A DNA stretch of 32,000 nucleotides from Candidatus Aenigmatarchaeota archaeon (GCA_016202815.1 JACQNZ010000002.1:48228-80227), one strand, 5' to 3'. Positions 290 through 32,000 are shown, counted from the stretch's first letter. The notes: generated by a model not told the origin, from the sequence alone. A program made the numbers and translations.

Positions 290-337
290 TCCGTTCACGT
301 TTAATTGTACAAAACTGCAATACAAAAAAGTGATTTG

Positions 338-1024: not shown

Positions 1025-1065
1025 CAATTTTAAGCAGCGGACGGCACTATATTATATAGATTCTA

Positions 1066-1941
1066 ATGCCGCAAAGACTGGTCTCTCTCGCAACAGGAGT
1101 TTTCGGATGGATACCGGAAAAATTTGGGAAAGAGCTGCAACCGGTGAAATTGGGCCTGGAAAAATCGGGCATGAAATACCTGCTAAAGACATGGGTGTCC
1201 ATATCCGCTGCGGCCGGCATCGGGGCCGCACTTTTCTCCATTCTGATAATCGGAGCCGTTTCTATAACCCTGGGCATGGAACCCGCGAACATCGTGATGC
1301 TGTCCCTGCTGCTTCCGCCGCTGTTCGGAACGCTGACATTCACCGGCATGGTGTTTTACCCGTACCAGAAAGCCATATCCAGGAAAAGGTCCATAGACAC
1401 GAACCTGCCGTTCGCGCTAAACCACATGGCCGCGATAGCCGCGTCCGGAGTTCCGACGTACGTCATGTTCAACCTTCTGGCAACGTTCAAGGAATACGGT
1501 GAAATTTCGGCTGAGGCAAAAAAAATAATCAGGAACGTGGACACTTTCGGGTTGAGCATAACCGTCTCGATACAACAGGTTGGCGAGCGCACGCCGTCAA
1601 AAAATTTCAAACAATTGTTGGAAGGAATAAGGTCCAGCATAGAGACCGGAGGCGACTTGAAAAAATACCTGAGTGACCAGGCCAAGAACGCGCTGTTCGA
1701 TTACAGGATAAAAAGGGAGAAGTATATGGAACTGTTGGCAACGTACGCGGACTTCTACACGGCCATGCTTATCGCAGCCCCGCTGTTCCTTGTTTCGATA
1801 TTGACTGTCATGAACATGATCGGTGGGGCATTGGGCGGCGCTTCCATAGAAAGCGTAATGGTACTCGGCATTTTTGTTGCGCTCCCGCTTGTTAACATAG
1901 CGTTCCTTTTGTTCGTTCATATAACTCAGCCAGAGGTTTAA
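1066..1941 (+). CDS. Type IV filament membrane platform protein, T2SS-F domain (TadB/TadC/ArlJ-like), half-size copy 1
   Basis: 291 aa with N- and C-terminal TM helices flanking a soluble helical domain (LPFALNHMAAIAASGVPTYVMF, GGDLKKYL), as in GspF/TadC/FlaJ repeats. It sits next to the ATPases. Confidence 0.65.
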   Translation: MPQRLVSLATGVFGWIPEKFGKELQPVKLGLEKSGMKYLLKTWVSISAAAGIGAALFSILIIGAVSITLGMEPANIVMLSLLLPPLFGTLTFTGMVFYPYQKAISRKRSIDTNLPFALNHMAAIAASGVPTYVMFNLLATFKEYGEISAEAKKIIRNVDTFGLSITVSIQQVGERTPSKNFKQLLEGIRSSIETGGDLKKYLSDQAKNALFDYRIKREKYMELLATYADFYTAMLIAAPLFLVSILTVMNMIGGALGGASIESVMVLGIFVALPLVNIAFLLFVHITQPEV

Positions 1942-1944
1942 AGC

Positions 1945-2814
1945 ATGGTATTGAAGAAAAAAGGCCTGGTGAACTGGATTCTTCGTAACAAGAAGAAGAC
2001 CGCAGTCATCGGAACATCGCTTGTAACCGCGATGATAATTACCGCAATAAACTTCCTCTATTTCACCCACGATGCCACGATTTTCCAGATCCTGGGATCG
2101 TTGGCAGTGTTGTTATCGCTGGGCCCGTCCCTGACAATAAGCTACTCAGAATATTCCAGGTCAAGGGAAATAGAAACCGTGTTTCCCATGTACATAACCG
2201 ATGTCGTTGACGGTGTCCGTGCAGGCATGACGCTGCCAATAGCGATGAAAGCCGCCGCAAAGCACGATTACGGCAAGCTTAACCCGTCGATCAGGCAGAT
2301 GGCCGCGCAAATGGACTGGGGCGTCCCGTTTGACGATGTTTTACGGGCATTCTCGGAAACTGTCGGCACGCCGCTGATAAGGCGTACCGTAGCAACGATA
2401 ATAGAAACCCACCGGTCCGGCGGGAATATAGTTGAAGTCCTGCAGGCCGTATCCGGTGCTGTTCTGGAGGTGAACAAAATAAAATCCGAACGCGCCTCGC
2501 ATATCTATGGCCAAATGATCACAGGTTACACCATATTTTTCGTGTTCTTGGCCGTCCTTATCGGACTGCAAAAATTCCTCCTGCCGTCCCTGTCCGGCTT
2601 GGGCGGAAGCCTTGAAGGCGGCATTTCGGGAAATGTCAGTTCAGGCCTGTACGACCTGATGTTCACTGCGATGATAATTATTCAGGGGACGTTTTCAGGC
2701 CTCGCAATAGGCAAGATGGCAGAAGGCTCAATATTCGGCGGGCTCAAGCACTCCGTTGCCCTAGTTTCAATCGGTTATGGGGCATGGGTCGCGGCCGGCG
2801 CGGTTGTTATTTAG
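1945..2814 (+). CDS. Type IV filament membrane platform protein, T2SS-F domain, half-size copy 2
   Basis: 289 aa with the same architecture (LPIAMKAAAKHDYGKLNPSIRQMAAQMDWGVPFDDVLRAF, ETHRSGGNIVEVL). It starts 3 nt after the stop of copy 1. Confidence 0.65.
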   Translation: MVLKKKGLVNWILRNKKKTAVIGTSLVTAMIITAINFLYFTHDATIFQILGSLAVLLSLGPSLTISYSEYSRSREIETVFPMYITDVVDGVRAGMTLPIAMKAAAKHDYGKLNPSIRQMAAQMDWGVPFDDVLRAFSETVGTPLIRRTVATIIETHRSGGNIVEVLQAVSGAVLEVNKIKSERASHIYGQMITGYTIFFVFLAVLIGLQKFLLPSLSGLGGSLEGGISGNVSSGLYDLMFTAMIIIQGTFSGLAIGKMAEGSIFGGLKHSVALVSIGYGAWVAAGAVVI

Positions 2815-2824
2815 GAAGGTTTTC

Positions 2825-3532
2825 ATGCCTGCTGAAAACGGTTTTGAAGCGATAAACCGGCGCGACAATGCCAGAAACCAAAGCGGTTACGGCAGCAAAA
2901 TCAAAGGGCGCGGCATAGACAAGCCCGCAATGGTGATGGAATACACCGAAAACGTGCGTGATGGGAATACCGATTACACCGTAACCGTCAAAAATTATGT
3001 CTGGCAAAAAGGCTTTCGCATCCCGGTGGGTCAGTACGCAAAACCCGACCATGAGGCAATGATATTCATAACAAACAATGCGACCGGCAGGACGCACGCG
3101 TTGACCTATTCGCACAATGAAAGGGTTTACTGGAAAAACGTAAAACCGGGCAAGGATGGCAAATACGAGGTCAGGATGCCTACATCGTGGCACACACCAA
3201 CCTTGGCCAAAGGCACCTACGAAAAGGTCTCATGGGACGGCAGCGAAAAGGGTATTAAAAAGTTTACATCTCACATAGATCCCAGGGAGGGCCGCGCCAC
3301 TTTATGGTATACAAAAGGCGCGCAGAAATTTGCTGAAATGACGCAAAAAATTTTAAGGCACGCCGGCCAGGAACTGCCGGAAACTGTTATGGCGGTTCCG
3401 ATAAATCCTGAAAAGCCGTCGGCTTTTTACAAGGGAAAAAATACACTGACCAGCGACGTCAGGACAGCCTTCACAAGGCCGTCGGAATTGTACCAAAGAA
3501 TGGAAAGTTCCGGAAGTAAAAGGAAAAAATAA
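2825..3532 (+). CDS. Hypothetical soluble protein co-oriented with the platform genes
   Basis: ATG at 2825 preceded by GGAAGG, 10 nt after the previous stop. 235 aa with no TM segment and a basic C-terminal tail (SGSKRKK). I recognise no family motif. Confidence 0.5.
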   Translation: MPAENGFEAINRRDNARNQSGYGSKIKGRGIDKPAMVMEYTENVRDGNTDYTVTVKNYVWQKGFRIPVGQYAKPDHEAMIFITNNATGRTHALTYSHNERVYWKNVKPGKDGKYEVRMPTSWHTPTLAKGTYEKVSWDGSEKGIKKFTSHIDPREGRATLWYTKGAQKFAEMTQKILRHAGQELPETVMAVPINPEKPSAFYKGKNTLTSDVRTAFTRPSELYQRMESSGSKRKK

Positions 3533-3544
3533 TTTATCGCGCCG

Positions 3545-4045
3545 CTACATAAACTTTATGTCGCTGGACTCTATCGTGGCTGTCGCTGCCGCGTTGGATC
3601 CGCTGCAGTTGTGCGGTATTCTAACGCGCGTTATTGCGTTGCTGTCAACGCTTGTGTTGCTCACGGAAACAGGCACGCCCGGCGCCAAACTAAGGTTGGC
3701 CGGTGAAATAATGTACTCCGAGCTTGTGCCGTTGTTGAAAAGCACTATCATCCTGAAATCGCCCAGTGGCACGTTGCCCTGGTTGATAACTTCCGTGGAA
3801 AACCTCTTTGTAGTTGAATTGTAAACCGGGGTTTCAAACGCCAACCACGCCGACGAGCACCCGACTTGCTTCGATCCTTTTTCGTTTAGTATCTGCGTCT
3901 GTGTGCGCGAATAATCCAGCACCCAGTTGCTTAATATAATTGCTACGGCCATAGTGAATGCGACAAGAAGGACTGTCGCTACCAGCGGAGACAGCCCCTT
4001 TTTACCATTCTCTTTTGATTGAACTTTTAGTAAAAGTTCATACAT
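3545..4045 (-). CDS. Archaeal type IV pilin-like protein (class III signal peptide), paralog 1
   Basis: N-terminus MYELLLKVQSKENGKKG/LSPLVATVLLVAFTMAVAIIL, i.e. a basic leader ending in KG followed by a hydrophobic helix. It has 2 Cys and 5 N-x-S/T sequons. TATA-like AATATTTATT lies about 28 nt upstream. Confidence 0.75.
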   Translation of the reverse strand: MYELLLKVQSKENGKKGLSPLVATVLLVAFTMAVAIILSNWVLDYSRTQTQILNEKGSKQVGCSSAWLAFETPVYNSTTKRFSTEVINQGNVPLGDFRMIVLFNNGTSSEYIISPANLSLAPGVPVSVSNTSVDSNAITRVRIPHNCSGSNAAATATIESSDIKFM

Positions 4046-4082
4046 GATCAGTATTCGCCGACCTTAGCAATAAATATTAGCC

Positions 4083-4562
4083 TTACTGGCCTGTGACCGT
4101 GCCGGCAACAACGTACCTGCTCTGGCACACAGCCGTCACGCGCACCTCTTTCCAGGCAACGCCCGAAGGTATCTGGCCTGTTAGCAGGTAATTGGTCAGT
4201 TTCACAGAAGAACCGACCCCCAGGTTCCTGACAACGCTGTCAGTGTTCGGCGACGTCGTATTAACATAAGTCACGCCGTTTGCGTCCCTTACTGTGAAAC
4301 CTGTGATGTTCAATATTTCAGAACCTGTTGAATACGTAACCGTAACATTTGTGATGTTGCTTATGACTGAAATATCGTCGCGGTCTATGGACAGCGTCGA
4401 ATACGCGCACAGCGTCTGCTGCTCGCCCCGCGCGCCGATGTTGGATGTCTGCTGCTGGGTAAAATCGGTTATCCATGTGACCACAACCAATGCCGTGGCC
4501 ATCGTGAACGCGACCAATAAAACCGCCGCTATCAGAGGTGAAACGCCTTTCAGATGTCTCAT
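4083..4562 (-). CDS. Archaeal type IV pilin-like protein, paralog 2
   Basis: MRHLKG/VSPLIAAVLLVAFTMA. I prefer the start at 4562 because it avoids overlap with the upstream paralog (stop at 4573). It has 2 Cys and 4 sequons and is closely similar to paralog 3. Confidence 0.75.
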   Translation of the reverse strand: MRHLKGVSPLIAAVLLVAFTMATALVVVTWITDFTQQQTSNIGARGEQQTLCAYSTLSIDRDDISVISNITNVTVTYSTGSEILNITGFTVRDANGVTYVNTTSPNTDSVVRNLGVGSSVKLTNYLLTGQIPSGVAWKEVRVTAVCQSRYVVAGTVTGQ

Positions 4563-4572
4563 AACAACCCTT

Positions 4573-5043
4573 CTAGAACTTGACCGTACCCGTAACAACG
4601 TACTGGCTCTGGCACAATCCGGTCACGCGGAACTCCGATAGACCTAAACCGCTTGGTATATTACCTGTAAGGTTATAATTCACAAATTTTCGGCTTTCGC
4701 CTACGCCCATATTTCTTGCTGTTGAGTCTGCATTGAGGTTCGTTACATTGACATACGTCATCCCATTTACATCCCTCAGTGTGAAGCCTGTTATGTTTAT
4801 GGTTTCGGTTCCACCCGAGTATGTGATGGTCGCATTCATGTAAGCACCGATAACATTTACATCGTCCTTGTCGACGCTAAGAACGGAATAGCTGCACAAG
4901 ACCTGCCGCTCGCCGCGCGTGCCGATATTAGACGTCTGCTGCTGGGTAAAGCCTGTTATCCATGTGACAATGATAGCCGCCACAGCCATAGTGAACGCGA
5001 CAAGAAGGACTGACGCAATAAGCGGTGATATTCCCTTTCTCAT
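4573..5043 (-). CDS. Archaeal type IV pilin-like protein, paralog 3
   Basis: MRKG/ISPLIASVLLVAFTMA. The ATG at 5043 has GGAG about 6 nt upstream. It has 2 Cys and 4 sequons. Confidence 0.75.
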   Translation of the reverse strand: MRKGISPLIASVLLVAFTMAVAAIIVTWITGFTQQQTSNIGTRGERQVLCSYSVLSVDKDDVNVIGAYMNATITYSGGTETINITGFTLRDVNGMTYVNVTNLNADSTARNMGVGESRKFVNYNLTGNIPSGLGLSEFRVTGLCQSQYVVTGTVKF

Positions 5044-5091
5044 ATTTTTCTCCTTTTGATAATATAGTCCCAAAATCATATATAAAGCTTG

Positions 5092-5553
5092 TCAGACGCT
5101 CTTGTCAACAAACGAATATTCGGGACAATTCGAAACAACCCGGAACCTGGTTATGTTCGAAACCCCATTAACTATGAACGACCGCGGCTCGCCGGGCGGT
5201 AATGTAGTGTTTTGCCTGCCCACAACGCTGACGTCTGTATCGAGCGAAATGCGACCGATCCCGCTGCCGTTGTAAAGGAACAGCGTAAAGTTCTGCAGGC
5301 CTATCCTGCCGTCGTTGTTTATTATGAGGATCAGCTGGTTGCCGGCCTTGTCGTACGTGTAGGTATCAAGGTTCATGCGCGCGTAAACGCAGTTCGCTTC
5401 GTTGCCTTTTGTTGTTAACGTGGACGTTTGCTGCGTCATGTACTGCGTCGCCCATGTGGCCAGAATGGCCGCTATCGCCATGGTAAACGATATCAAAAGT
5501 ACCGAAGCGACCAGAGGTGAGACTCCCTTACCAAGAGGCGCCTTATCAACCAT
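5092..5553 (-). CDS. Archaeal type IV pilin-like protein, paralog 4
   Basis: MVDKAPLGKG/VSPLVASVLLISFTMAIAAIL. It has 2 Cys and 4 sequons. An AT-rich TATA-like stretch lies about 35 nt upstream. Confidence 0.75.
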   Translation of the reverse strand: MVDKAPLGKGVSPLVASVLLISFTMAIAAILATWATQYMTQQTSTLTTKGNEANCVYARMNLDTYTYDKAGNQLILIINNDGRIGLQNFTLFLYNGSGIGRISLDTDVSVVGRQNTTLPPGEPRSFIVNGVSNITRFRVVSNCPEYSFVDKSV

Positions 5554-11983: not shown

Positions 11984-13423
11984 TCAGACATAACGCTTAT
12001 ATAACTTGGTGCCGTTTTCCTCTTTCAAAAGCTGAAAATCCGGCGGTTTGAGGTCAAATTCGGTCACAACGTAGCTTACATTCCACTTGTCCAGCAGGTC
12101 GGAATCCAAATCCATTTCGCCGATTAATTTTTGCCTGTCAGAAACCATTTCCCGGTATTTGTCCGTGAAAACCTCCAGTTCGGAAACGCGCGGGTTCATC
12201 GGATATTTGTTCGCAATTACCGCAAACCAAACCTCGTACTTGCCGTCCGCGACCAGGACCGAGGGCGCTTTATCGGTGTTTTCCAGCCACATTGCCAGCC
12301 TCGCCTCGTCGTTTGAAGGTGCATCGTCGGAAACGCAGCAATTCCTCAAATTGGTGGCATTGGTGTACGGATTGATGAAAAGAAACGCGAATAAAATTCC
12401 TGCCATGATAAACCTGGCAAACTTTTGAACCCGCCTGGTCTGTTTCATAGCAATGACCGTGCCGAAAGCCGCAAGAGGCGGCACGGCGACCGCCAGCATA
12501 TCAGGAAATTTATACTGCGTGCCTGGTATGTGGAATATCGTGAAGGCTGCCGTGAATAAAAAAACCCACAATTGGTACCGTCTTTGCTTGTGCGCGTAAG
12601 CAGCACCAACAACAGAAAAGAAAAACATCATCAGCCCTATTCTGGCGCCGGGCATGAGGCTGAAAAACCAGTTGTTGATGCTGTCAATACCGACAAATCC
12701 GGCCTTGTAATACCATATGGTGTTCTCCCACCTGCGGTTTATCGCATTGTCCGCTATCTGCAGGTACTTGGGCACCCAGATAAGCGACACCAACAAAGCT
12801 ATGGAAAGGAACGTAAGAACGCTTTTTATTTCTGTGCGCTTTCCGTTCCGCCGTATGGATAAAAAGAAATGAATGGTAATCAAAACCGCCGCGTACAAGG
12901 CTGTGAATGTATGGGATAGCAAAACAAGCCCCGAGAAAACCGCGGCAACCGGGTAATTTTCCTTGCGAAGGAAATACAACATGACGACCAGGAGGTTCAT
13001 CGAAAGCAGCTGCGGATATTCGCCGGCGGCAAACACCTCAATTAAACTTGCCTGCACAGCGCCAAAAAAAGAAAACAGGACCGCTTCTTTTCTGCCAAAC
13101 GCGCTCCCATAGATGTAAAAAGCTACGGGGAAGAAGGCGTATGAAAAAAGGCCCAACAAAATCACTGATCTGTAAGTTTCAATGCCGGTGTAAGAAATTG
13201 CATACGACATCCAGTGAAACAGTGGCGGGTACGTGAACATGACGTCTGCGAATGGTGCCCATGTGGAAGGTATCAACGAATGTCGCATCACGCCGCCCGC
13301 TATTTCGGAATGAAGCGCAGGGTCATATGTAAGTGGGAACGGATCAATAATTTTGTAGCCGGAAATCAGCAGATAAAAAAACATCGCAAAAGGGACGACA
13401 ATACCGTATCTCCCCGCGTTCAT
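11984..13423 (-). CDS. Polytopic membrane protein, GT-C (ArnT/PMT-like) glycosyltransferase-like
   Basis: 479 aa with about 11 predicted TM helices followed by a ~110-aa soluble C-terminal domain. There is no WWDYG AglB motif. The family call is tentative. Confidence 0.4.
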   Translation of the reverse strand: MNAGRYGIVVPFAMFFYLLISGYKIIDPFPLTYDPALHSEIAGGVMRHSLIPSTWAPFADVMFTYPPLFHWMSYAISYTGIETYRSVILLGLFSYAFFPVAFYIYGSAFGRKEAVLFSFFGAVQASLIEVFAAGEYPQLLSMNLLVVMLYFLRKENYPVAAVFSGLVLLSHTFTALYAAVLITIHFFLSIRRNGKRTEIKSVLTFLSIALLVSLIWVPKYLQIADNAINRRWENTIWYYKAGFVGIDSINNWFFSLMPGARIGLMMFFFSVVGAAYAHKQRRYQLWVFLFTAAFTIFHIPGTQYKFPDMLAVAVPPLAAFGTVIAMKQTRRVQKFARFIMAGILFAFLFINPYTNATNLRNCCVSDDAPSNDEARLAMWLENTDKAPSVLVADGKYEVWFAVIANKYPMNPRVSELEVFTDKYREMVSDRQKLIGEMDLDSDLLDKWNVSYVVTEFDLKPPDFQLLKEENGTKLYKRYV

Positions 13424-19641: not shown

Positions 19642-20529
19642 ATGGAAGCGGCTGTTCTGGTCAGGAAAATAAAAAACCTGGAAATACAGGGCGCGAAAGC
19701 CGTTGCGCTCGCTGGTCTGGACGCGCTCAACCTGTGCGCATCTGAAATAAAATCAAATGGCAGGAACGGTTTTTTACGGACCCTGGAATCGAAATCAAAG
19801 CTGATCAAAGAAGCACGCCCCACCGAGCCGGCGCTGAAGAATGCATTAAGTTTTGTGATGGGCAGGCTTCCGAAAGCCGGAACCATCGAAGATGCCCAAA
19901 AAGCGGTTGCGCTCGAAGTCAGAAATTTCTCAAAAAACATCGAATCCTCGATAAAAAAAATAGGGGAAATAGGCGCGCGAAGAATACCAAATAAGGCCGT
20001 AGTGTTCACACACTGTCATTCGAACACTGTGATGGAAATATTCCGTTGCGCAAAAAAAGACGGCAAAAAATTCGAAGTAATCTGCACAGAAACGCGCCCG
20101 ATGAATCAGGGTTTATTGACAGCAAAACAGGTCGCTGGCATGCAAATACCGGTGACGCTTATCGTGGACTCGGCTGCGCGCACCTTTGTAAAAAAATGCG
20201 ACTTGGTGATCATAGGCGCTGACGCGATAACATCTACAGGCGATGTTGTGAATAAGGTCGGATCTTCGACAATCGCACTGATAGCGGAGGAACAAAAAAA
20301 GCCTCTTTATGTTGCCGCGGGCACGCACAAAATAGACCCCGAAACTGCCAAAGGTTTTTTGGAGCCGATAGAAGAGAGGCCAGCGAAGGAAATTACGGCA
20401 AAAAAACTAAAGGGTGTGAAAATAAGGAATCCGGCGTTCGACGTCGTCGCCGCGAACAGGATAAGCGGAATAATCACAGAACTTGGCATGGTAGCGCCGC
20501 AAAGCGTTAGCAGGTGGGCAAAAAATTAA
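19642..20529 (+). CDS. e2b2: eIF-2B alpha/beta/delta-family protein, likely ribose-1,5-bisphosphate isomerase
   Basis: FTHCHSNTV, CTETRP, IIGADAI and NPAFDVVAANRISGIITELG are eIF-2B-family motifs. The isomerase call rests on its position directly upstream of the AMP phosphorylase. Confidence 0.65.
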   Translation: MEAAVLVRKIKNLEIQGAKAVALAGLDALNLCASEIKSNGRNGFLRTLESKSKLIKEARPTEPALKNALSFVMGRLPKAGTIEDAQKAVALEVRNFSKNIESSIKKIGEIGARRIPNKAVVFTHCHSNTVMEIFRCAKKDGKKFEVICTETRPMNQGLLTAKQVAGMQIPVTLIVDSAARTFVKKCDLVIIGADAITSTGDVVNKVGSSTIALIAEEQKKPLYVAAGTHKIDPETAKGFLEPIEERPAKEITAKKLKGVKIRNPAFDVVAANRISGIITELGMVAPQSVSRWAKN

Positions 20530-20547
20530 TATCCTCTTGGTGTTTGT

Positions 20548-22098
20548 ATGAATCTTAAATCAAAACTGGCCGGCATAGAATCGGGCGGCGTTTTCGTTGT
20601 AATATTGAACCCGAAGGATGCCGCGGACATAGGCGTACATTCAACTGACCGGGTGAAAGTTTCCCGCAACGGCCGCGAAGCCGTATGCATCGTCGACGTT
20701 TCTAAAAGCTGGATATCCAAAGGCTCGCTCGGCATATACAGGGAGGTTGAAAAGGCGCTTTCCATAAAAGCCGGCGATGTTGTCGATGTGGCGGCGGCCG
20801 ACGCGCCTCGCTCCATGGAATTCATAACAAAAAAAATGAACGGTGCGCGCCTCAACAAGCAGGAAATGTTCGCTATAGTAAAGGACACCGTGGAACGTAA
20901 ATTGTCCGATGTTGAATTGACGGCATTCGTTTCCTCCCTTCATTTCAACGGCATGTCCATGGACGAGACCGTGGCACTGTCGACTTCGATGGCCGAAACG
21001 GGCAAGACGCTCGGGATAAAGGAAAAAATTATACTGGACAAGCATAATATAGGCGGCGTTCCGGGCGATAAGACGTCAATGCTGGTAGTCCCGATAATCG
21101 CTGCGGCCGGTTACAAGATCCCCAAGACAAGTTCGCGCGCAATAACATCCCCAGCCGGAACCTCGGACAGGGTGGAGTGCCTATGCCCTGTGGATTTGAG
21201 TGTTGAAGAAATTTTAAACACGGTTGAAAAAACAAACGGCTGCTTGGCATGGGGCGGCGCCGTTGATCTCGCTCCGGCAGATGACATGTTCATCCAGGTA
21301 GAATATCCATTGGCGATCGACCCGTTGTTATTGCCGTCAGTCATGTCAAAGAAAAAGGCCGTTGGTGCAACCCACGTTGTGATAGACATGCCAACTGGCC
21401 GCGGATCGAAACTAAAAACCATCGGCGCGGCGCACGCGCTGGCAAAGGATTTCATCGAACTCGGCAAAAACATGGGGATAATTGTCAATTGTGTTATAAC
21501 ATTCGGGGAGCAGCCGATCGGGTACGGCGTCGGCCCTGCCCTCGAGGCGCGCGAGGCGCTGGACGCGATATCAAACGTCTCATCGCCGCCCGACCTTGTT
21601 GAAAAGGCCGTAGACCTCGCAGGCGCGCTCCTTGAACTGGCCGGCGAAAGAAACGGCAAGGAGCTGGCATACAAACTCCTGAAATCGGGCAGCGCAGAGC
21701 GCAAGCTGCGCCAGATAATCGGGTCGCAGGGCGGTGACCCGAAAATAAAAACCAACGACATAGAAGTGGGGTCGCACATCGCAGAAATACGCAGCAAGAC
21801 GGACGGCATGATCTGGTGGATCGCAAACCATGACATTGTAAAAATTGCACGCGAAGCCGGGGCACCGAAGGACAAAGGCGCTGGCATATTATTCAGGAAA
21901 AAAATAGGCGATGCCGTAAAGAAAGGCGACGTTGTCATGGAGGTATACGCAGAGAACGAAAGGAAGCTGCACAACGCAATCGCGCTTGCAGAATCGCTCA
22001 ACCCAGTCGGCGTTTACGCGCGCCCGCAGGATCGCACGTTGATAGAAAAGGTGCCTGACGGGGAGGACCATAAAAAATTATTCATTCTGGAAAGGTAG
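20548..22098 (+). CDS. deoA: AMP phosphorylase (thymidine phosphorylase family with an N-terminal extension)
   Basis: 516 aa. The N-terminal ~85-aa extra domain (LAGIESGGVFVVILNPKDAADIGVHSTDRVKV) is typical of archaeal AMPpase. The core carries DKHNIGGVPGDKTS, SSRAITSPAGTSD and GGAVDLAPADD. Confidence 0.75.
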   Translation: MNLKSKLAGIESGGVFVVILNPKDAADIGVHSTDRVKVSRNGREAVCIVDVSKSWISKGSLGIYREVEKALSIKAGDVVDVAAADAPRSMEFITKKMNGARLNKQEMFAIVKDTVERKLSDVELTAFVSSLHFNGMSMDETVALSTSMAETGKTLGIKEKIILDKHNIGGVPGDKTSMLVVPIIAAAGYKIPKTSSRAITSPAGTSDRVECLCPVDLSVEEILNTVEKTNGCLAWGGAVDLAPADDMFIQVEYPLAIDPLLLPSVMSKKKAVGATHVVIDMPTGRGSKLKTIGAAHALAKDFIELGKNMGIIVNCVITFGEQPIGYGVGPALEAREALDAISNVSSPPDLVEKAVDLAGALLELAGERNGKELAYKLLKSGSAERKLRQIIGSQGGDPKIKTNDIEVGSHIAEIRSKTDGMIWWIANHDIVKIAREAGAPKDKGAGILFRKKIGDAVKKGDVVMEVYAENERKLHNAIALAESLNPVGVYARPQDRTLIEKVPDGEDHKKLFILER

Positions 22099-22099
22099 G

Positions 22100-23400
22100 A
22101 TAAAGTAGGATATGTGACATACTCCCACCTAAAAGGTGTAGGCTTCTTGCTTCCCTGACGGAACTGTCGCCCCATCTCCACAAGCGTTACTTCCCGCCTG
22201 CCCGGCGGTAGCTCTGATGAGTATATTCTTTGCAGCGTTCAAATCTCTGTCTATCACAAGACCGCAGAAAGGACAGTCATGTATCCTGTCTGAAAGTTCC
22301 TTCTTAACAATCTCGTGACAGTTGCTGCATCCTTGTGTAGTGTTTTTCGGGTCTACGAATACGATCTTGCAACCAGCTTCTTCCGCTTTGTAGCTGATCA
22401 TATTCGCAAACACATTCCATCCGGCATCGTTGATCGACTTGCCTAAGTTTTGTTTTGACATTTCTTTTGAGGCAAGTTTTTCAAGCGCTATGAAGGAATA
22501 ATCATTGACGATTCTTGTTGATGTCTTATGAAGGAAATCTGCTCTTGTGTTTGATACTTTTTCGTGAAGTCTTGCAACCTTGAGCTTTGCCTTCTTCCTG
22601 TTATTGCTTACTTTCTTTTTATTGGATAATTCCCTTTGCAGTTTGGCAAGGTTCTCTTCGTGCCGTTCCAGATGTCTTGGATTTTGTATGACTTCTCCGT
22701 TTGAAATGGTGGCAAAGGTTTTCAAACCCAAATCTATTCCTATTTGTTCTCCGTTATTTATCCTCGGTTCTTTTCTCTCCTGTCCAACACAGAACGTGGC
22801 GAACCATTTGCCTGAAGATTCCCTTTTCAATGTCAGGGTTTTTACTTCGCCTTCTATCTCACGATGTTTCTTGATGTTTATTTCTCCAAAAGGGGTTACT
22901 TTGAGTTTTTTATTGAGTGAAAAACCACTCTGCGGATAATTTAGGCTCTTTATTCTATCAATATTCTTGAAGCGAGGATAACCGCATTCCTTGCCCTGCT
23001 TTCTCATTTTGACCATGCGCCACAAAGCCCTTTGAAGCCTGTGCGATAATGTCTGCGCTACTTGAGAATACAAACCGCTGTTCTTTACCATTATTTGCAT
23101 TTCACTTTTTGTAAGGAATTTCCCTGTTTCATCATATTTTTTCTTGTTAGATTCAAGAAGCGTGTTCCACAGGTTCTTCTCTATCCAGAGATGTTCTTTC
23201 ATCTGAGTTTCCTGTTTCTTTGACGGGTAGATTCTGAATTTGTAGGTTCTCATGCTGCTTCGCCCTCACAACATCCTGTACATGTTCCAAATGCTTTTTA
23301 TGTTTTCGGTTGTGGTGTGCCGATATGGTTCGCTTCCATCCCGCCCCCGAAGAGCGTGGAATTTCCCGCTCACTCTGTTAAAATATTTAAGCGCGGACAG
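22100..23400 (-). mobile_element. TnpB-only IS200/IS605-type element (no tnpA); the boundaries are approximate
   Basis: The tnpB gene is flanked by a hairpin right after its stop (22105-22128) and by imperfect palindromes upstream (about 23325-23385). It appears more AT-rich than its neighbours. The exact ends cannot be set from one copy. Confidence 0.4.
22129..23253 (-). CDS. tnpB: TnpB (IS200/IS605-family OrfB, RuvC-like RNA-guided nuclease)
   Basis: MRTYKFRIYPSKKQ (OrfB N-terminus), RuvC-I IGIDLG, RuvC-II FIALEKL, Zn finger CSNC..CPFC, and RuvC-III DRDLNAAKNI. 374 aa and apparently intact. Confidence 0.85.
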   Translation of the reverse strand: MRTYKFRIYPSKKQETQMKEHLWIEKNLWNTLLESNKKKYDETGKFLTKSEMQIMVKNSGLYSQVAQTLSHRLQRALWRMVKMRKQGKECGYPRFKNIDRIKSLNYPQSGFSLNKKLKVTPFGEINIKKHREIEGEVKTLTLKRESSGKWFATFCVGQERKEPRINNGEQIGIDLGLKTFATISNGEVIQNPRHLERHEENLAKLQRELSNKKKVSNNRKKAKLKVARLHEKVSNTRADFLHKTSTRIVNDYSFIALEKLASKEMSKQNLGKSINDAGWNVFANMISYKAEEAGCKIVFVDPKNTTQGCSNCHEIVKKELSDRIHDCPFCGLVIDRDLNAAKNILIRATAGQAGSNACGDGATVPSGKQEAYTF

Positions 23401-26462: not shown

Positions 26463-27584
26463 TTAATCGACGTCGCCGTCCGATGAAGGTTTCTTGACGA
26501 TCTCAATAACCGCCACACCTTTGTCAGCATAACCGGAATAATTGTAGTTCTTTAACCCGATGTAATAACGCGCCTGGGCAACAGCCTCAAACGAACACGA
26601 GTCTATCGCTGTCCCGGATTTCGAAGACGAGCATTTCACAGCGCCGCACTCGCCGCCGTGCGCGCCCGCGCTGCCGGAGTCATAAACGTAAAGGTCCACA
26701 TCACTGTTGGTCTCTGCTGCCACAGCTACGCTCACAGCCCCTGAAAAGGTCGTGTTGAACACGTAAAAGGTTTCGCTGCCCATCGGCATCTCGCACGTTT
26801 TCGCAGACCCCGATGACGACAAGCCTGCTACGGCGCTTCCGATCCAATCCGCGTCACTGCACAATGTGCGGCATGGTTTGACTGGTGCAAGCGTCGTAGT
26901 TGTGCTGGTTGTTGTCGTAGTGGTTGCCGCAGAACCCGTCTTCACAACCGCCCCGTCCTGGAATTGTATCGTGCATCCTGCGGTTGCGTAAACATAATAA
27001 CCTGCACGCCCGTCGAGACTATCAACCTTCGGCGCTGACGCATCGCCGGATTTTGAGTTCTGCCATTTCTGAGCCGAGCCGTTAAAGTGCCACACCGGCA
27101 CGTTGTTCAGATTAACGCCGCTCCCGCAAACATCGGCTATGTCTTTTGGAACGAACAGACCCGAGGTGGGGTTGGATATCATGTTCCAGCCTTTGTAAAG
27201 CGTTACGCTCGCAGAGCTCGGCTTCGGCGGACCCGCAACACTGACAATGCATTTTTTGGATTCGTTGTTTCCCAGATAAACCCAATAACCTTTGTCGGAA
27301 GCCAGCCACGTTATCGCGGGCAAGCCGTCGTACACGCCTTTCGAATATTGCCACTTCTGCACCGAAGCGTTCAGATGCCACACAATCTGCGTTTGCGGAC
27401 AGGAGGCGTTTATAGTTCTCACATCCAGCACAGCGCCGACAGGCGACGATATCATGTTCCATCCGTTGGAATAAAGTGTTAAAACATTCGGCGTCGATGC
27501 ATCAGGTGCGGATGGGGGCGCTTGCGCAAAAACAAAAGACGCCAGCATGAGAAATCCAAAAATGAAGGCAATTTTATTTTTCAT
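26463..27584 (-). CDS. Secreted protein: Sec signal peptide, two ~85-aa repeats, poly-Thr linker, and a PPC-like C-terminal domain
   Basis: Signal peptide MKNKIAFIFGFLMLASFVFA/QAPP. Repeats at aa 33-117 and 126-210 share TLY-x-GWNMIS-xP...VWH-x-N-x-S-x-QKWQ-xSK...GY-x-VY. The TTTTTTSTTTT linker is followed by a C-terminal part (TNSDVDLYVYD) reminiscent of the pre-peptidase C-terminal domain. Confidence 0.6.
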   Translation of the reverse strand: MKNKIAFIFGFLMLASFVFAQAPPSAPDASTPNVLTLYSNGWNMISSPVGAVLDVRTINASCPQTQIVWHLNASVQKWQYSKGVYDGLPAITWLASDKGYWVYLGNNESKKCIVSVAGPPKPSSASVTLYKGWNMISNPTSGLFVPKDIADVCGSGVNLNNVPVWHFNGSAQKWQNSKSGDASAPKVDSLDGRAGYYVYATAGCTIQFQDGAVVKTGSAATTTTTTSTTTTLAPVKPCRTLCSDADWIGSAVAGLSSSGSAKTCEMPMGSETFYVFNTTFSGAVSVAVAAETNSDVDLYVYDSGSAGAHGGECGAVKCSSSKSGTAIDSCSFEAVAQARYYIGLKNYNYSGYADKGVAVIEIVKKPSSDGDVD

Positions 27585-27594
27585 GCTTTCACAA

Positions 27595-27951
27595 TCAAGG
27601 TGCCGGTGGTGTCGGTGGCACTCCGCCTGCCGCAGCTGTCGTTGTCACTACAACGCCCGGGCAGCCGCATCCGACTTTGACTGCAAGCTTGTCCGCGTCA
27701 GTGTCGCATGTCGCTTTGTTTAAAACAATCCCATTAGCGGCTGCGCACAATGATGTTGACGGGTCTCCGGCGCAGCCAGTATTCACTAAAACCTGGCATT
27801 CCTTGTTGAAATTCGCCCTTGACTGCTGGTTTGTGGCAAACGGACTCCAAACGCCCATGAATACCGCCACAATCGCGATTAGAATGATGACCGCTATGGC
27901 AAGGATAACAAGCATGTCAATGGGGAGTGAAACGCCCTTTCTTTTAGCCAT
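27595..27951 (-). CDS. Small Cys-rich pilin-like protein (class III signal peptide-like N-terminus)
   Basis: MAKRKG/VSLPIDMLVILAIAVIILIAIVAVFMG, then 6 Cys in about 50 aa, ending in a Thr/Ala/Pro-rich tail. 118 aa. Confidence 0.6.
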   Translation of the reverse strand: MAKRKGVSLPIDMLVILAIAVIILIAIVAVFMGVWSPFATNQQSRANFNKECQVLVNTGCAGDPSTSLCAAANGIVLNKATCDTDADKLAVKVGCGCPGVVVTTTAAAGGVPPTPPAP

Positions 27952-27982
27952 CTTGATCTTATTATCTATTTCTTTTCAATGG

Positions 27983-27990
27983 TTTAAATA
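27983..27990 (-). promoter_or_regulatory. TATA-like box (TATTTAAA on the minus strand) upstream of the small pilin-like gene
   Basis: It lies about 35 nt upstream of the ATG at 27951, in the only sizeable (53 nt) gap of the operon. No Shine-Dalgarno motif is present. Confidence 0.3.
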
Positions 27991-28004
27991 GTTAGTTCCT
28001 GGCA

Positions 28005-29393
28005 TCACACAGGAACAAGCACTGTCGGCGCGCAGGCAGAATTATCCGCGAGAAGTTCCGTGACAGTCGCGTAACCGCTTTTCATTGTTGTGCAGCTGTG
28101 TGTCATGAAATTGAATTTCAATGTTTCGTAAGGCAGCAGTTTGGCAACAGCCAACACAACGTTAAGCGTTTTCGACGGCACAAAACCGTTTGGATCCTCG
28201 GAAGAGTATTTTTCGTAGGCATCCGCAACAAATGTGAATTTTATTTTCTTGGTTATCGTGTCAGCAAAGCATGTTTTCGTTTTGCTTTCAACAACGCTCA
28301 CGCACTCGCAGGCTCCGCACGCTGGCGCAGCTCCGCACACCGGCTTAACGCACGCCCCGCTGTCGTAAACGCAGCCGTTATCGCACGTGTCGCCGGGCAG
28401 GGGCGCGCCGCACGTTTTTTTGAATTCGCATTTCCCGCAGGCGTTTTCAACCTTGTAGCCGCAGTCGAAAGAACAGGCTCCTGTTGACAGCAACGCGCCC
28501 GCGTCGTCGTAATTTGCCGACAAAGAGTGTTTCTCAAACTTCGCCTTGAACGACGTGAAAGGCTCGCCTGCCGGCGTGTTTGATATGGTGATAGCCGGCA
28601 GCTTCGGATAATCCGTTGTTGCCAAAACGTCCGCAGCCGTTGGTTCGACAGCGCTGGAAACAGGACACGCGTTGCTGTACTCGTCCGCAGGATCGCACTT
28701 CGCAACAGGCAACGCGCACTTCGCCGCCTCGTTGGTCGTTTCGCCTTCCGTTTTCACAGAAGCGAACGCCTCATTTACTGTTTTTTCAATTTCGCCGCTC
28801 CCCAAAAACTGCTTCGCAGCATCGTACAGCGCGAAATATTTTAATTTTATCTCGTTATCGATGTAGCCTTTCAGCGACGTCTTTATTTTTAAGCCCTGCG
28901 TATCAAGACCCTTAGAGACTTCGACGCCCTTGCTTCCCTTTACGTAAAATTTCTCCGATTTTGGAAAATCGCCGTTGTCCGGTATTACCTCCACTTCCGT
29001 GCTGCCATAGCTTATGGTTATGAACTTGCCGGCGATCGGATGGGATTGCACGTTTGCGATCTCGTCAACAATGTAACGCTTTAAGGTGTCTTTGATCGTC
29101 GCTTCGCCGGGCGCTGTTTTCCATATTGCTACGCCGTCCTTTTGCGGCACTGTGTTGTCCAACCCGCCCATTGCGCCTGCCCTTGACGCGCCTGTTTGCG
29201 CGTATGTTGGCACAGCCTCTTCCAGCGTCTTGCGCGACAGCTCCAGGTAATTGAGCGTCGAAAAGCTTTCCTTGTGCCGCTCGGAAACTATGAAGACTTC
29301 CGATGTGACAACGGACTTGAACCACCATATTATGAGCACTCCAAAAACTATGAAAACCGTGGTGCTCATGAAACGTACGATGCTTCCTTTCAT
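28005..29393 (-). CDS. N-terminally anchored, Cys-rich surface protein (462 aa), unknown family
   Basis: N-terminus MKGSIVRFMSTTVFIVFGVLIIWWF (helix). 18 Cys in total, 13 of them within aa 307-375. It starts 4 nt after the upstream stop. Confidence 0.55.
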   Translation of the reverse strand: MKGSIVRFMSTTVFIVFGVLIIWWFKSVVTSEVFIVSERHKESFSTLNYLELSRKTLEEAVPTYAQTGASRAGAMGGLDNTVPQKDGVAIWKTAPGEATIKDTLKRYIVDEIANVQSHPIAGKFITISYGSTEVEVIPDNGDFPKSEKFYVKGSKGVEVSKGLDTQGLKIKTSLKGYIDNEIKLKYFALYDAAKQFLGSGEIEKTVNEAFASVKTEGETTNEAAKCALPVAKCDPADEYSNACPVSSAVEPTAADVLATTDYPKLPAITISNTPAGEPFTSFKAKFEKHSLSANYDDAGALLSTGACSFDCGYKVENACGKCEFKKTCGAPLPGDTCDNGCVYDSGACVKPVCGAAPACGACECVSVVESKTKTCFADTITKKIKFTFVADAYEKYSSEDPNGFVPSKTLNVVLAVAKLLPYETLKFNFMTHSCTTMKSGYATVTELLADNSACAPTVLVPV

Positions 29394-29397
29394 ACAA

Positions 29398-29964
29398 TCA
29401 CTTTATCGTCGAATACAGCCGGTAAACCGCGGCCTTGCTGCAGGCGCCGCACGCGGGTTGCGGCAAATAAAATTCCATTTCCGCAACCTCGGCGTCAGAT
29501 ACAATTTTTTCTTTGTTCTTGGATGCTACGATAGTCCGTTTAGTTGCCGTCGACGCGCCGTTGCTGAATTCTTTTCTCAATTCGAATATGTACGGCCCCT
29601 GAACAAGGCTGTCGAATACCCCCTGCGAAAGCGCGCGGGCATCGTAAAGCTTGCCGTCGGCGTATGCGCTGCCGTCCCAGCCCAGGTCGCCGTCCCACTG
29701 GAACGCTGCCGCGGACAGGACGCTTTTCAGCGGGGCGTCCGACGCACTGGATTTTATTTCCAGCGCGGACAGCAACGAGTTCTCGTTGTTGAGGGAAAAT
29801 TCGAGGAACGTCGCGTGCACTGTCACCTTAATGAAATTTCCCACTATTATTTTTGCTATGCTCATTGAAAACATCAGGACCAGCGACGTAAAAAAAAGTA
29901 TGATGAGGAAAAAGAAGTCTGACATGAACGTTATGTCGCCCTTCATCCTGCTCTTGCGCGCCAT
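29398..29964 (-). CDS. Pilin-like N-terminally anchored protein, unknown family
   Basis: MARKSRMKG/DITFMSDFFFLIILFFTSLVLMF. The ATG at 29964 lies 1 nt after the upstream stop; alternative starts are at 29973 and 29946. Confidence 0.5.
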   Translation of the reverse strand: MARKSRMKGDITFMSDFFFLIILFFTSLVLMFSMSIAKIIVGNFIKVTVHATFLEFSLNNENSLLSALEIKSSASDAPLKSVLSAAAFQWDGDLGWDGSAYADGKLYDARALSQGVFDSLVQGPYIFELRKEFSNGASTATKRTIVASKNKEKIVSDAEVAEMEFYLPQPACGACSKAAVYRLYSTIK

Positions 29965-29965
29965 G

Positions 29966-30409
29966 CTAATCATACCTCGGGACGTAAACGCTCATCTTGC
30001 CGGCCAATACAGCATCGCTCACATTTACCGCAACAGGATATTCCCACAGCTTGTAATTTTCTTTGCGTATTGACACGTCTCCGAACTCCCATGTCCTGCT
30101 GTTGTCTGTAAGGTTTATCTGCAAATAATATTTCTTTATCTGGAAATCGAACTGCTGCCCGAATGTGGTTGCGTCAAGCTTGTCCAGCTTGTCCGCATCA
30201 AGCACCCCCTTCCTGTAGTCGGGTTCGCTCTGCGTCAAAAATGGCGCGCCCGCAAGGTATTGGCCGAACATCAAATTCAGCCTGTCAATCTGGTTCCCAT
30301 GGGCCTGGAGTGAAAAGTCCTGGAACTGCACTATCGAGCCTAACAATGCCACGATAGTTAGGACAAGAGACGCTATTTTTAGGAAATTTTCTGAAATGAA
30401 TGACGACAT
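29966..30409 (-). CDS. N-terminally anchored small protein, unknown family
   Basis: MSSFISENFLKIASLVLTIVALLGSIVQF is followed by a soluble ~115-aa domain. It starts 3 nt after the upstream stop. Confidence 0.5.
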   Translation of the reverse strand: MSSFISENFLKIASLVLTIVALLGSIVQFQDFSLQAHGNQIDRLNLMFGQYLAGAPFLTQSEPDYRKGVLDADKLDKLDATTFGQQFDFQIKKYYLQINLTDNSRTWEFGDVSIRKENYKLWEYPVAVNVSDAVLAGKMSVYVPRYD

Positions 30410-30412
30410 GCT

Positions 30413-30907
30413 TCACTTTCCTCCTATCGGGCTTGCGTAAACGCTTGTCTCCTTGCCGGTTTTTTTGACCGTGATTAACCAGCTTGTTGATTCGCTCATC
30501 TTGCCGCCTGCCGGTGCGGCCGCCTCGCTGTCCAGGGGTTTCACGCTATTCCCGCTGGCTGTGATAAGGTACAGCTTCTGCTTGGGCTGTATCTTCACTG
30601 TGGCGCCTTCCTGCACGCGGAATTTTTCCCTCGTGGAATCCATTGATATGAAATTGCTGTTTCCGTCCTTGTCTATGGAAATCTTGTACGGGTTGGGCTG
30701 CATCATAAAGCTCGCCTCAAAGCCCGGCGCCATGTCGGCCGCGGCCGCCAGGCCGAAAACGGTTTCTGCGGCAAGCCGCGAGTCAAAGCTGAAAACCAAA
30801 TCCCCCATGCTCGCGCCCGCAGTGATAATGAAATAAAGGCTTAACAAAAGAACTGCCAGTTCAGAAAGGAACACCATGAAATCCCGTACAATGATTATGC
30901 CTTTCAT
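30413..30907 (-). CDS. Pilin-like N-terminally anchored protein, unknown family
   Basis: MKG/IIIVRDFMVFLSELAVLLLSLYFII. The ATG at 30907 forms an ATGA overlap with the upstream stop. The track's longer start (30988) would overlap the upstream gene by 85 nt. Confidence 0.5.
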   Translation of the reverse strand: MKGIIIVRDFMVFLSELAVLLLSLYFIITAGASMGDLVFSFDSRLAAETVFGLAAAADMAPGFEASFMMQPNPYKISIDKDGNSNFISMDSTREKFRVQEGATVKIQPKQKLYLITASGNSVKPLDSEAAAPAGGKMSESTSWLITVKKTGKETSVYASPIGGK

Positions 30908-32000
30908 CCGTTGCACCCGCACACATTCTTGTAATCCGACTCGGCGACCTTGGCCAGCTGTTCCAGCGTGCAGCTGTCGCTGCCGCATATCAGCCTGTTC
31001 TTTTCCGCGTAATCAACGCCCTGGCACACGAAGTCTCCGGTGCATTGCGCTATGCCGCAACAAGCCGTCATGGAAAGCTTGGCAGCCTCTTTCGGGTTTT
31101 TCTGTATGTTGCAATTCAATACGTTCATGTCCTTGTTACCAAGCGATTGGAAAGGCTGGAAAGGCCATGTTGTGTCATACTCTGTCTTAACCTGTATTCC
31201 CGAACACGCGGGTTGCAAAAGGAAACCCACTGCTACAAGCTTTCCGAAATCCGCTATGACTGAACAGGCCAATGAACCGTAAAACCCTGCCGCCATCTCG
31301 TTGAACTTGCCTTCGTCAAAGTAGCAATAATTTGAATGTCCGGGCGTCGGGCATTTGTCCACGTCGGCCATTACGAGCGGTCTTCCCGCCTTGTCGTCGC
31401 CGGCGTTATAAAAACTGATCTGCGCTAAGCACGGGGAAACAAGATGGAACCTTGGCTTGTCATCAAATTGGAACGCCCCTACGCCGCCGCCAAGCGGGGA
31501 TATAAAACCGTCCCTTTTAAGCCGCACCATGACATTGTTTTTCACAACATACACGTCTTCATAACTTTTGATCTGGCTCTCCGAAACACCCTCCTTTTTC
31601 TGCTCAACCGTTTTCATGTTAAGGCATACGGTGTTCGACTCGCAGCCCGCGTTCGGCGATTTCAGGTATGAATATTTCACGTCGTTCTCGCTTGGCAGGT
31701 ACGTGCCTATTGTGAACGCGGACAGGTCGGTCTTGAGGAATTTTACAGTCTCTTTCGGCTCCCATCCGCCCAGCTTGTCGACTGTGCCTGAAAGGATCGA
31801 ATCGTATTTGTCCTCTGCCATGAGCGCGAGCGTTTCAGGCTCGCGTTTCCATGATGCGGAAAGCATCGCGATCTCCATAGCCTCGTCCCTGTCTATCAGT
31901 GCGCTGGCCGGGTCTGACGGGTCGATCCTTATGTTTTTTGCGTTTTTCAGCTCATTCTGGAAATCGGCTACAAGCCGCCTGGAATATTGCGGCGTGGAAA
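30904..32000 (-). CDS. Large Cys-rich exported protein; the N-terminus lies outside the window
   Basis: The frame stays open upstream of the Met at 31878 all the way to nt 32000 (checked by hand: ...STPQYSRRLVADFQNELKNAKNIRIDPSDPASALIDRDEAMEIAML...). The C-terminal 130 aa carry about 14 Cys and end in VCGCNG. Confidence 0.55.
   Translation of the reverse strand, partial: STPQYSRRLVADFQNELKNAKNIRIDPSDPASALIDRDEAMEIAMLSASWKREPETLALMAEDKYDSILSGTVDKLGGWEPKETVKFLKTDLSAFTIGTYLPSENDVKYSYLKSPNAGCESNTVCLNMKTVEQKKEGVSESQIKSYEDVYVVKNNVMVRLKRDGFISPLGGGVGAFQFDDKPRFHLVSPCLAQISFYNAGDDKAGRPLVMADVDKCPTPGHSNYCYFDEGKFNEMAAGFYGSLACSVIADFGKLVAVGFLLQPACSGIQVKTEYDTTWPFQPFQSLGNKDMNVLNCNIQKNPKEAAKLSMTACCGIAQCTGDFVCQGVDYAEKNRLICGSDSCTLEQLAKVAESDYKNVCGCNG

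Follow-up and report, generated by a model that had tools for sequence, protein, structure and literature searches.

A candidate type IV pilus-like operon of cysteine-rich, pilin-like proteins in Aenigmatarchaeota

What is encoded by a tightly packed run of archaeal genes whose products carry an N-terminal hydrophobic helix and belong to no nameable family? The question is raised by one end of a 32,000-nucleotide stretch of DNA from a Candidatus Aenigmatarchaeota archaeon (GCA_016202815.1, JACQNZ010000002.1:48228-80227; this whole stretch is hereafter called the window, and positions are counted from its first letter), where seven consecutive open reading frames (ORFs) run on the minus strand from 26463 to beyond 32000, as read from the ORFs of all six frames and from a translation of the window edge with its frame corrected. 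A preliminary description of this DNA had proposed a filament apparatus built from a major subunit, minor pilins or pseudopilins and a tip adhesin. Extension of the operon beyond the window and its synteny in related genomes support this proposal, and we estimate a probability of about 80% that the operon specifies a type IV pilus-like apparatus, or type IV filament, of this DPANN lineage, with three features of such machines found here: an assembly ATPase, a platform protein and class III-type substrates.

Gene layout and extent of the operon

The genes, named by the length of their products in amino acids (aa), and one promoter-like element are arranged as follows in transcription order:

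30904 to beyond 32000, minus strand: 3' part of g900 (364 codons inside the window), the C-terminal 364 aa of a 900-aa protein
30413-30907, minus strand: g164, 164 aa, pilin-like
29966-30409, minus strand: g147, 147 aa, with an N-terminal membrane helix
29398-29964, minus strand: g188, 188 aa, pilin-like
28005-29393, minus strand: g462, 462 aa, Cys-rich and pilin-like
27983-27990, minus strand: TATA-box-like element TATTTAAA, within the 53-nt spacer between g462 and g118
27595-27951, minus strand: g118, 118 aa, small pilin candidate
26463-27584, minus strand: g373, 373 aa, protein with a Sec-type signal

The spacers between the seven ORFs measure, in the same order, -4, +3, +1, +4, +53 and +10 nt, g164 overlapping g900 by 4 nt, so that the dense packing with a single 53-nt gap described beforehand was reproduced. 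The same holds for the single N-terminal hydrophobic helix, Sec-type or class III-like, which was seen in all six complete products, and for the lack of a nameable family: none of the seven proteins gave a significant match in Pfam or NCBIfam, the best being PPC in g373 (E=0.002, below the cutoff). We regard the window genes as real because their orthologues in other genomes (33-92% identity) keep the same order.

The missing part of the locus was recovered from a contig of the same strain (L019), which shows 0 mismatches over the 5600 nt that it has in common with the window and extends 7.5 kb past the window edge. It carries the full g900 gene (L019:5950-8652, 900 aa) and, upstream of it on the same strand, genes for proteins of 100, 110, 63, 108, 524, 68, 80 and 146 aa, followed by a gene for a 688-aa polytopic protein and by the final 33 residues of yet another gene. 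These terminal residues (TGYMDPKEIFSRWDKWF..), which stand directly upstream of the platform gene, match the C-terminus of the 757-aa secretion ATPase that heads the operon in the orthologous loci (Pfam T2SSE, E=1e-18, above cutoff) and whose closest solved relatives in PDB are A. fulgidus GspE2, CpaF and FlaI. Beyond the ATPase and platform signals, the ten upstream operon proteins yielded no significant match in Pfam or NCBIfam. In one locus (L012:3230-9241) the ATPase ORF measures 2003 aa, its T2SSE domain being interrupted by two inteins with LAGLIDADG homing-endonuclease domains.

The polytopic protein belongs to a family of 688-708 aa with nine predicted transmembrane (TM) helices. As a single sequence it resembles T2SSF weakly (E=0.019), 4 of 5 family members match (best E=7e-7), and its N-terminal half aligns with the T2SSF proteins encoded elsewhere in the window (hhalign probability 77%, E=2e-5); the family profile found nothing in PDB under E=0.1. 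Because of these family-wide T2SSF matches and of the profile-profile alignment, we conclude that the ~690-aa membrane protein is a divergent platform in which two T2SSF units are fused. Both ATPase (757 aa) and platform (~690 aa) score under every NCBIfam equivalog cutoff.

Across genomes the order of genes is ATPase - platform - g146 - g80 - g68 - g524 - g108 - g63 - g110 - g100 - g900 - g164 - g147 - g188 - g462 - g118, the 13 fixed-order genes downstream of the platform being followed by one or two g118 copies and then by a variable last gene. Identical order was found in L001/L019, L005, L007/L014, L008/L010, L012, L013 and L015, with L011 agreeing up to the end of its contig; two divergent operons (L021 and L022), which are more distant loci of the g462 family, share the same architecture and order behind a T2SSE ATPase. 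Identities, taken relative to the proteins of the window strain (for the ATPase, to that of L010), amount to 87-89% for the ATPase, 71-89% for the platform, 72-92% for g118 and 26-62% for the other operon genes. The seven window ORFs are thus the promoter-distal third of one ~17-gene operon of 16-17 kb. Distant ATPase and platform pairs in another member of the Aenigmatarchaeota (L016) and in a member of the Thermoplasmata (L017) come without the pilin gene set and are uninformative on the seven genes.

That no protein of the seven could be assigned to a family, and that a TnpB/IS605 gene lies nearby (22129-23253) with a similar element inside the operon of L005, would also be expected if no common apparatus existed and unrelated anchored or secreted proteins, or genes carried along by a mobile element or provirus, had come to stand side by side. 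Set against this, the strict gene order with ATPase and platform persists at protein identities of only 26-60%, in at least eight genomes, which rules out both a loss of synteny and a chance assembly of unrelated membrane anchors, two outcomes that the preliminary description had named as refuting its proposal. Signal motifs are shared by the operon genes, and the chromosomal neighbours ApgM, OGG and AMP phosphorylase are kept in the orthologous loci. Viral contigs searched for relatives of the operon contained none, for which reason a viral or provirus origin was rejected. Conserved order, conserved neighbours and the lack of viral-contig relatives mark the operon as a stable chromosomal system, not a mobile element, and owing to the synteny data we regard the assumption of unrelated genes as effectively refuted.

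Signal motifs, cysteines and glycosylation sequons

In ortholog alignments, [KR]G is invariant or nearly so immediately ahead of the hydrophobic helix in 11 of the 14 conserved downstream families (g80, g68, g524, g108, g63, g100, g900, g164, g188, g462 and g118); it is missing from g146, g110 and g147, but in the divergent L021 the counterpart of g147 begins with MKG. Among the six complete window genes the motif and its hydrophobic segment are found in g118, g462, g188 and g164. An acidic residue usually follows within positions +1 to +6 of the junction, as in RKG↓VSLPID (g118), KKG↓VSEY (g108) and KG↓FGQD (g900), where the arrow marks the junction. When all genes of the window were scanned, the motif was confined to these four genes, to four Pilin_N genes at 3545-5553 and to one borderline membrane protein. 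The recognised pilins of the window have their KG↓[VI]S junction in common with the operon proteins, so that a single peptidase could act in both systems.

The products had been described as unusually rich in cysteine, which is correct for the seven taken together (52 Cys in 1816 aa, i.e. 2.9%, versus 0.98% in the 21 other window proteins) and for four of them individually, namely the C-terminal part of g900 (4.4%), g462 (3.9%), g118 (5.1%) and g373 (2.7%), but fails for g164 and g147, which contain none, and for g188 with only two (1.1%).

A second property shared by most of these proteins is a scarcity of N-glycosylation sequons (N-x-S/T), for which the counts observed and those expected from shuffled sequences were the following:

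operon of the window strain (L001 gene set; window 27595-32000 and L019:2171-11961): 2 observed, 15.8 expected (Poisson 2e-5)
L005 operon: 4 observed, 19.1 expected
L007 operon: 5 observed, 18.9 expected
L008 operon: 3 observed, 19.9 expected
L013 operon: 4 observed, 18.1 expected
g900 in six orthologues: 0 observed, 28.4 expected
g147 in six orthologues: 8 observed, 4.2 expected
g373: 6 observed, 3.5 expected
four window Pilin_N genes (3545-5553): 17 observed, 8.8 expected
cytoplasmic window proteins: 14 observed, 17.7 expected

No such depletion is thus seen in the cytoplasmic proteins of the window, and g147 is the sole operon family that escapes it. Archaeal pilins and archaellins are typically N-glycosylated, which makes an avoidance of sequons unusual. 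Together with the invariant cysteines described below, the depletion suggests that the proteins are met by the glycosylation machinery, i.e. that they are exported, and indicates that selection may keep the operon proteins unglycosylated, with disulfides probably supplying stability instead.

A candidate shaft subunit and its partner proteins

Among the pilin-like genes, g118 stands out. Its product starts with MAKRKG↓VSLPIDMLVILAIAVIILIAIVAVFMGVW.. and continues with a head of ~45 residues containing six Cys and a variable Thr/Pro/Gly-rich tail. Identity across genomes (given above) is the highest of all pilin-like genes; in 31 sequences the N-terminal 40 residues are invariant, as are all six Cys. 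The family comprises 34 members, often two per contig, with tandem duplicates in many genomes, and g100 is a full-length paralogue (hhalign 94.6%), the only such paralogy in an all-against-all hhalign comparison of the operon families, in which the other matches were limited to hydrophobic N-termini. In addition, the TATA-like box is centred ~35 nt upstream of the g118 ATG, within the sole sizeable spacer of the region, and all six orthologous g462-g118 spacers carry TATTTAA[AG] in the corresponding place, marking a candidate internal promoter of g118. On account of its top conservation, invariant cysteines, tandem duplication and own conserved box, we see in g118 the leading candidate for a major filament subunit, by analogy with known pili. 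In an AlphaFold2 model built from the 31 sequences (pLDDT 75), a 47-residue N-terminal helix (11-57) is predicted to bear a small helical head; neither a fold comparison (Foldseek) nor the family profile (none under E=0.1) matched anything in PDB.

The full-length g900 protein has the class III-like N-terminus MANSKG↓ASQDTIFLILGLVIF. Its orthologues are 44-59% identical, and all 18 of its Cys, 16 of them within the part encoded in the window, are invariant in six orthologues; with no match in Pfam or NCBIfam, it is a candidate for a large Cys-rich pilin-like protein of the tip or an adhesin, again by analogy. A comparable place, as a large minor pilin or tip component, may be filled by g462, which begins with MKG↓SIVRFMSTTVFIVFGVLIIWWF and is recorded in the databases as a 454-aa form owing to a later start chosen by gene callers, the 462-aa translation not being on record. 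The N-terminal 60 residues of this protein are extremely conserved, with 20 invariant residues within positions 18-60, and the 15 sequences compared share 13 invariant Cys. Every named one of its 15 homologues comes from Aenigmarchaeota, and an exhaustive profile search with the family retrieved 13 representatives among 1.84 billion proteins. Its AlphaFold2 model has an N-terminal helix (5-74) followed by beta strands.

Of the smaller products, g164 (MKG↓IIIVRDFMVFLSELAVLLL) keeps MKG and the hydrophobic segment in six orthologues (identity 53-56%), and g188 (..SRMKG↓DITFMSDFFFLIILFF) keeps [KR]G-D and the hydrophobic segment in seven (53-60%). Neither gave a family match or a PDB profile match under E=0.1; by analogy, g164 is a candidate minor pilin or assembly component and g188 a candidate minor pilin. 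The g147 family profile likewise found nothing in PDB under E=0.1. A match of g147 to DUF7285 (E=0.063) never recurred when 24 orthologues of g146, g164, g147 and g188 were scanned singly and was therefore treated as chance; the protein may be a bitopic accessory factor or, alternatively, pilin-like but atypical. For g164, g147 and g188, no relatives outside the operon family were detected in Pfam and PDB.

The last gene, g373, starts 10 nt downstream of g118 and differs in kind, its product carrying a Sec-type signal (..SFVFA↓QAPP), two tandem repeats of ~90 aa (GWNMIS..VWH.N..QKWQ..GYWVY) as well as a Thr-rich linker and, at the C-terminus, a PPC-like domain. Three homologues were found, one of which (P0052) has PPC at the same position above the Pfam cutoff. 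The slot is occupied by an unrelated secreted protein of 379/396 aa in L005/L007 and by nothing in L008. The preliminary description had included g373 in the mix of sizes that it likened to a set of pilus subunits; on the evidence of its signal and of this replacement we instead read it as a variable, Sec-exported accessory protein, an add-on rather than a pilin.

Could the system be a display device instead of a long adhesive filament, that is, a short membrane-proximal structure of the bindosome or pseudopilus type, its class III proteins processed by the same ATPase, platform and peptidase, which anchors the 524-, 900- and 462-aa proteins or pushes a Sec cargo such as g373 outward? Three large proteins with class III-like signals, the position of g373 immediately behind the small pilin and a number of pilin-like genes that is unusually high for a simple pilus would all suit such a device, as would the score of the ATPase against bindosome BasE (E=2e-19), which is far under the cutoff (70 bits; cutoff 1000). 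No substrate-binding or transporter domain was found in any operon protein, g118 shows the hallmarks of an abundant polymer (extreme N-terminal conservation, duplication and a promoter-like box), and the Sec protein, being variable and missing in L008, is not the purpose of the system. We therefore consider a display device unlikely. The bindosome itself was rejected on the lack of solute-binding domains and on the same BasE score.

If the operon indeed specifies a type IV filament, its assembly would most likely follow the standard type IV pilus route: a PibD/FlaK-type prepilin peptidase encoded elsewhere would cleave the substrates after Gly, and ATPase and platform would draw the cleaved proteins out of the membrane for polymerisation via their N-terminal helices. 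The shaft would be formed by g118, possibly with its paralogue g100, and g164, g188, g462 and g900 would act as low-copy pilin-like subunits that prime assembly and sit at the tip, where the large disulfide-rich proteins could supply binding surfaces. In such a machine g147 would be a membrane-anchored accessory factor, and g373, transcribed together with the pilin, a surface or secreted partner that varies between strains. By analogy, and given the DPANN lifestyle, such a machine would most plausibly serve to attach the cell to surfaces or hosts.

Several observations weigh against a type IV filament. The expectation that ATPase, platform and peptidase genes might lie just upstream was borne out for the first two, but a prepilin peptidase was found in no locus: neither the window proteins and the flanking loci nor those proteins scanned upstream of the ATPase gave a Peptidase_A24 match. 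Archaeal prepilin peptidase genes are often unlinked to pilus loci (PMC4858521). The full ATPase gene was seen in the orthologues, and from the same strain the last 33 residues alone were recovered. The leaders of g164 and g462 are three residues long (MKG), which makes their cleavage uncertain. None of the 14 conserved downstream families matched a pilin family (g118 against Pilin_N, PF07790, E=0.58), nor did the other six window proteins match Pilin_N, which the window pilins at 4083-5553 match at E=9e-5 to 5e-3. A helix plus beta-sandwich pilin fold, which the preliminary description had suggested seeking in AlphaFold models, was not demonstrated for g118 and g462: Foldseek against PDB returned no pilin for either model (best E 0.016 and 4.6 for g462 and g118, TM-scores <=0.25), the predicted g118 head is helical and not the usual beta-sheet, and the confidence of the g462 model is low (pLDDT 60.5). 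Shaft, tip and adhesin, finally, are roles given to these proteins by analogy only.

Relation to known filaments and genomic setting

Archaeal adhesive pili have been catalogued as Aap and Ups in Sulfolobales, Epd in Methanococcus and PilA in Haloferax (Makarova, Koonin and Albers 2016, PMC4858521). The operon resembles them in that a VirB11/FlaI-family ATPase adjoins a TadC/FlaJ-like platform, class III genes follow, and the pilins evolve fast; it differs in the lack of Pilin_N or UpsA matches, in its 11 pilin-like genes with three large class III proteins, in its unusually long ATPase and platform and in its sequon avoidance. Comparable traits are described for the subclade 4E type IV pili of Thermoproteales (PMC4858521), in which almost all components carry multiple conserved Cys, expected to form disulfides, and which also include diverse small minor pilins together with large signal-peptide proteins for which a role as adhesins or minor pilins has been proposed. 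Those, however, belong to hyperthermophilic Crenarchaeota, whereas the present organism is a DPANN archaeon from groundwater, presumably mesophilic, and the operon has a number and order of genes peculiar to Aenigmatarchaeota.

In bacteria, FimU-PilVWXE-PilY1 of type IVa pili and GspHIJK of type II secretion systems are minor-pilin priming complexes. We take the operon to be organised in a similar way, with a block of several pilin-like genes of low conservation, large ones among them, co-transcribed with the machine and a major pilin under its own promoter, although no sequence similarity or demonstrated fold similarity connects the two and, as expected for an archaeon, no secretin or alignment subcomplex is present. 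A functional analogy is offered by Saccharibacteria, ultrasmall, host-dependent members of the CPR (candidate phyla radiation), whose type IV pili, as far as the accounts in PMC9894109 and PMC11623550 go, drive episymbiosis and mediate host binding; unlike in our case, these are bacterial systems with recognisable pilins and an experimentally tested role, the role here being inferred.

Other filament types were examined and set aside. The operon proteins include no match to ArlH (KaiC-like), ArlF/ArlG, ArlCDE/ArlX or archaellin, which excludes an archaellum. For a Tad/Flp pilus, whose markers are a TadV peptidase, the accessory genes TadZ/RcpA and a G/XXXXEY motif in the Flp-family pilin, a sub-threshold Flp1_like match of g80 (E=0.027) was the sole signal; no other Tad components were found, and the ATPase is CpaF/TadA-like at the family level only.

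The same window contains a second, recognisable filament locus, as proposed earlier for positions 1-5553, which was confirmed and has the following genes:

~2-290: end of an upstream ORF
305-1024: KaiC/ArlH-like ATPase
1066-1941 and 1945-2814: two half-size T2SSF/ArlJ-like genes
2777-3532: 251-aa protein with no family
3545-5553, minus strand: four pilin genes with KG↓[VIL]SPL(I/V)A N-termini and a Pilin_N or NCBIfam arch_flag_Nterm match

The pilins at 3545-4045 and 5092-5553, which are the two that were run against NCBIfam, match arch_flag_Nterm above the cutoff, and all four weakly resemble UpsA. This bears on a different possible role for the same type of machine, the exchange or uptake of DNA, as by Ups of Sulfolobales or bacterial Com pili; reduced DPANN genomes may need imported DNA or nucleotides. 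It is the other pilin set of the window, though, that weakly matches UpsA, the operon proteins being unlike UpsA/B, and no genes for DNA-binding proteins, nucleases or translocases lie in or beside the operon, so that we consider a DNA pilus highly improbable and retain adhesion as the role of the putative type IV filament.

The remainder of the window is archaeal housekeeping (CDP-archaeol synthase, Pus10, PTH2, prefoldin, SRP54/FtsY, an aIF-2B-family protein, AMP phosphorylase, ApgM and OGG), and Rfam and tRNA scans of it detected no RNA genes. Amid these genes, at 11984-13423 on the minus strand, lies the gene of a 479-aa protein with at least eight predicted TM helices, a soluble C-terminal part and no Pfam match. 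The TnpB/IS605 OrfB-type gene mentioned above (minus strand, 3 kb from the operon) combines OrfB_IS605 with a Cas12f1-like TNB domain; its same-family counterpart at L005:3957-5105 is inserted between g110 and g100. Upstream of the ATPase, L010 (1745-6122) and L014 (515-5379) have five to six paralogous genes arrayed on the same strand, whose products, membrane proteins of 161-305 aa, show 4-6 TM helices, the motif GFY.F.LPWL and no Pfam family; a gene for a soluble protein of ~200 aa precedes the array. The genes for AMP phosphorylase and for the aIF-2B-family (ribose-1,5-bisphosphate isomerase-like) protein directly adjoin in the window (19642-22098), L005 and L007. A form III-type RuBisCO large-subunit gene is placed between the two in L008 (16937-20669), L009 (6399-10119) and L022 (17695-21311), and it appears to be lacking at this position in the lineage of the window.

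Meaning for Aenigmatarchaeota

The kind of system described here is already known, since DPANN type IV pili with unrecognisable pilins have been published. In the islands of Makarova, Wolf and Koonin (2019, PMC6393860), as far as the relevant text of that paper extends, an ATPase and TadC are flanked by unannotatable signal-peptide genes, termed 'dark matter' and read as diverse pilins that match nothing. A large diversity of archaeal type IV pilus loci, including the Cys-rich Thermoproteales systems with their large signal-peptide proteins, has been documented (PMC4858521), and a 2025 preprint (10.1101/2025.08.05.668663) reports conserved pilus scaffolds with variable pilins in lineages related to Aenigmatarchaeota. 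We therefore see the advance as one of detail and not of kind, the operon most likely encoding archaeal type IV pili in a form particular to its lineage. Measured against PMC6393860 by the text of its Figure 2A, what is new is a defined 17-gene architecture kept across the lineage. To this can be added a major-pilin candidate whose head is, according to the model, atypical, as well as a putative signature of disulfides and sequon avoidance and a narrow distribution of the g462 family. All named homologues of g462, g118 and g373 come from metagenome-assembled genomes of Candidatus Aenigmarchaeota/Aenigmatarchaeota, and for g462 and g118, the two that were searched more widely, only Aenigmatarchaeota-named or metagenomic sequences were retrieved.

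To our knowledge, the Aenigmatarchaeota have no cultivated member, and little is understood of the way in which DPANN archaea locate their hosts and stay attached to them. The operon provides a concrete candidate for a DPANN contact apparatus, with a putative shaft (g118), adhesins (g900 and g462) and a strain-variable partner (g373). A bolder proposal, which we offer tentatively and consider possible rather than probable, is that of a DPANN-specific host-contact organelle: an unglycosylated, disulfide-stapled filament with a new small helical shaft head, a tip complex of about ten proteins (the 524-, 900- and 462-aa ones included) that would hold the host, and a variable last gene that would tune host specificity. 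If this were true, sequon avoidance would reflect the need for bare protein-protein recognition surfaces. For the biogenesis of archaeal filaments, the window offers a useful case of one genome with two pilin sets, one sequon-rich and recognisable, the other sequon-free and disulfide-rich.

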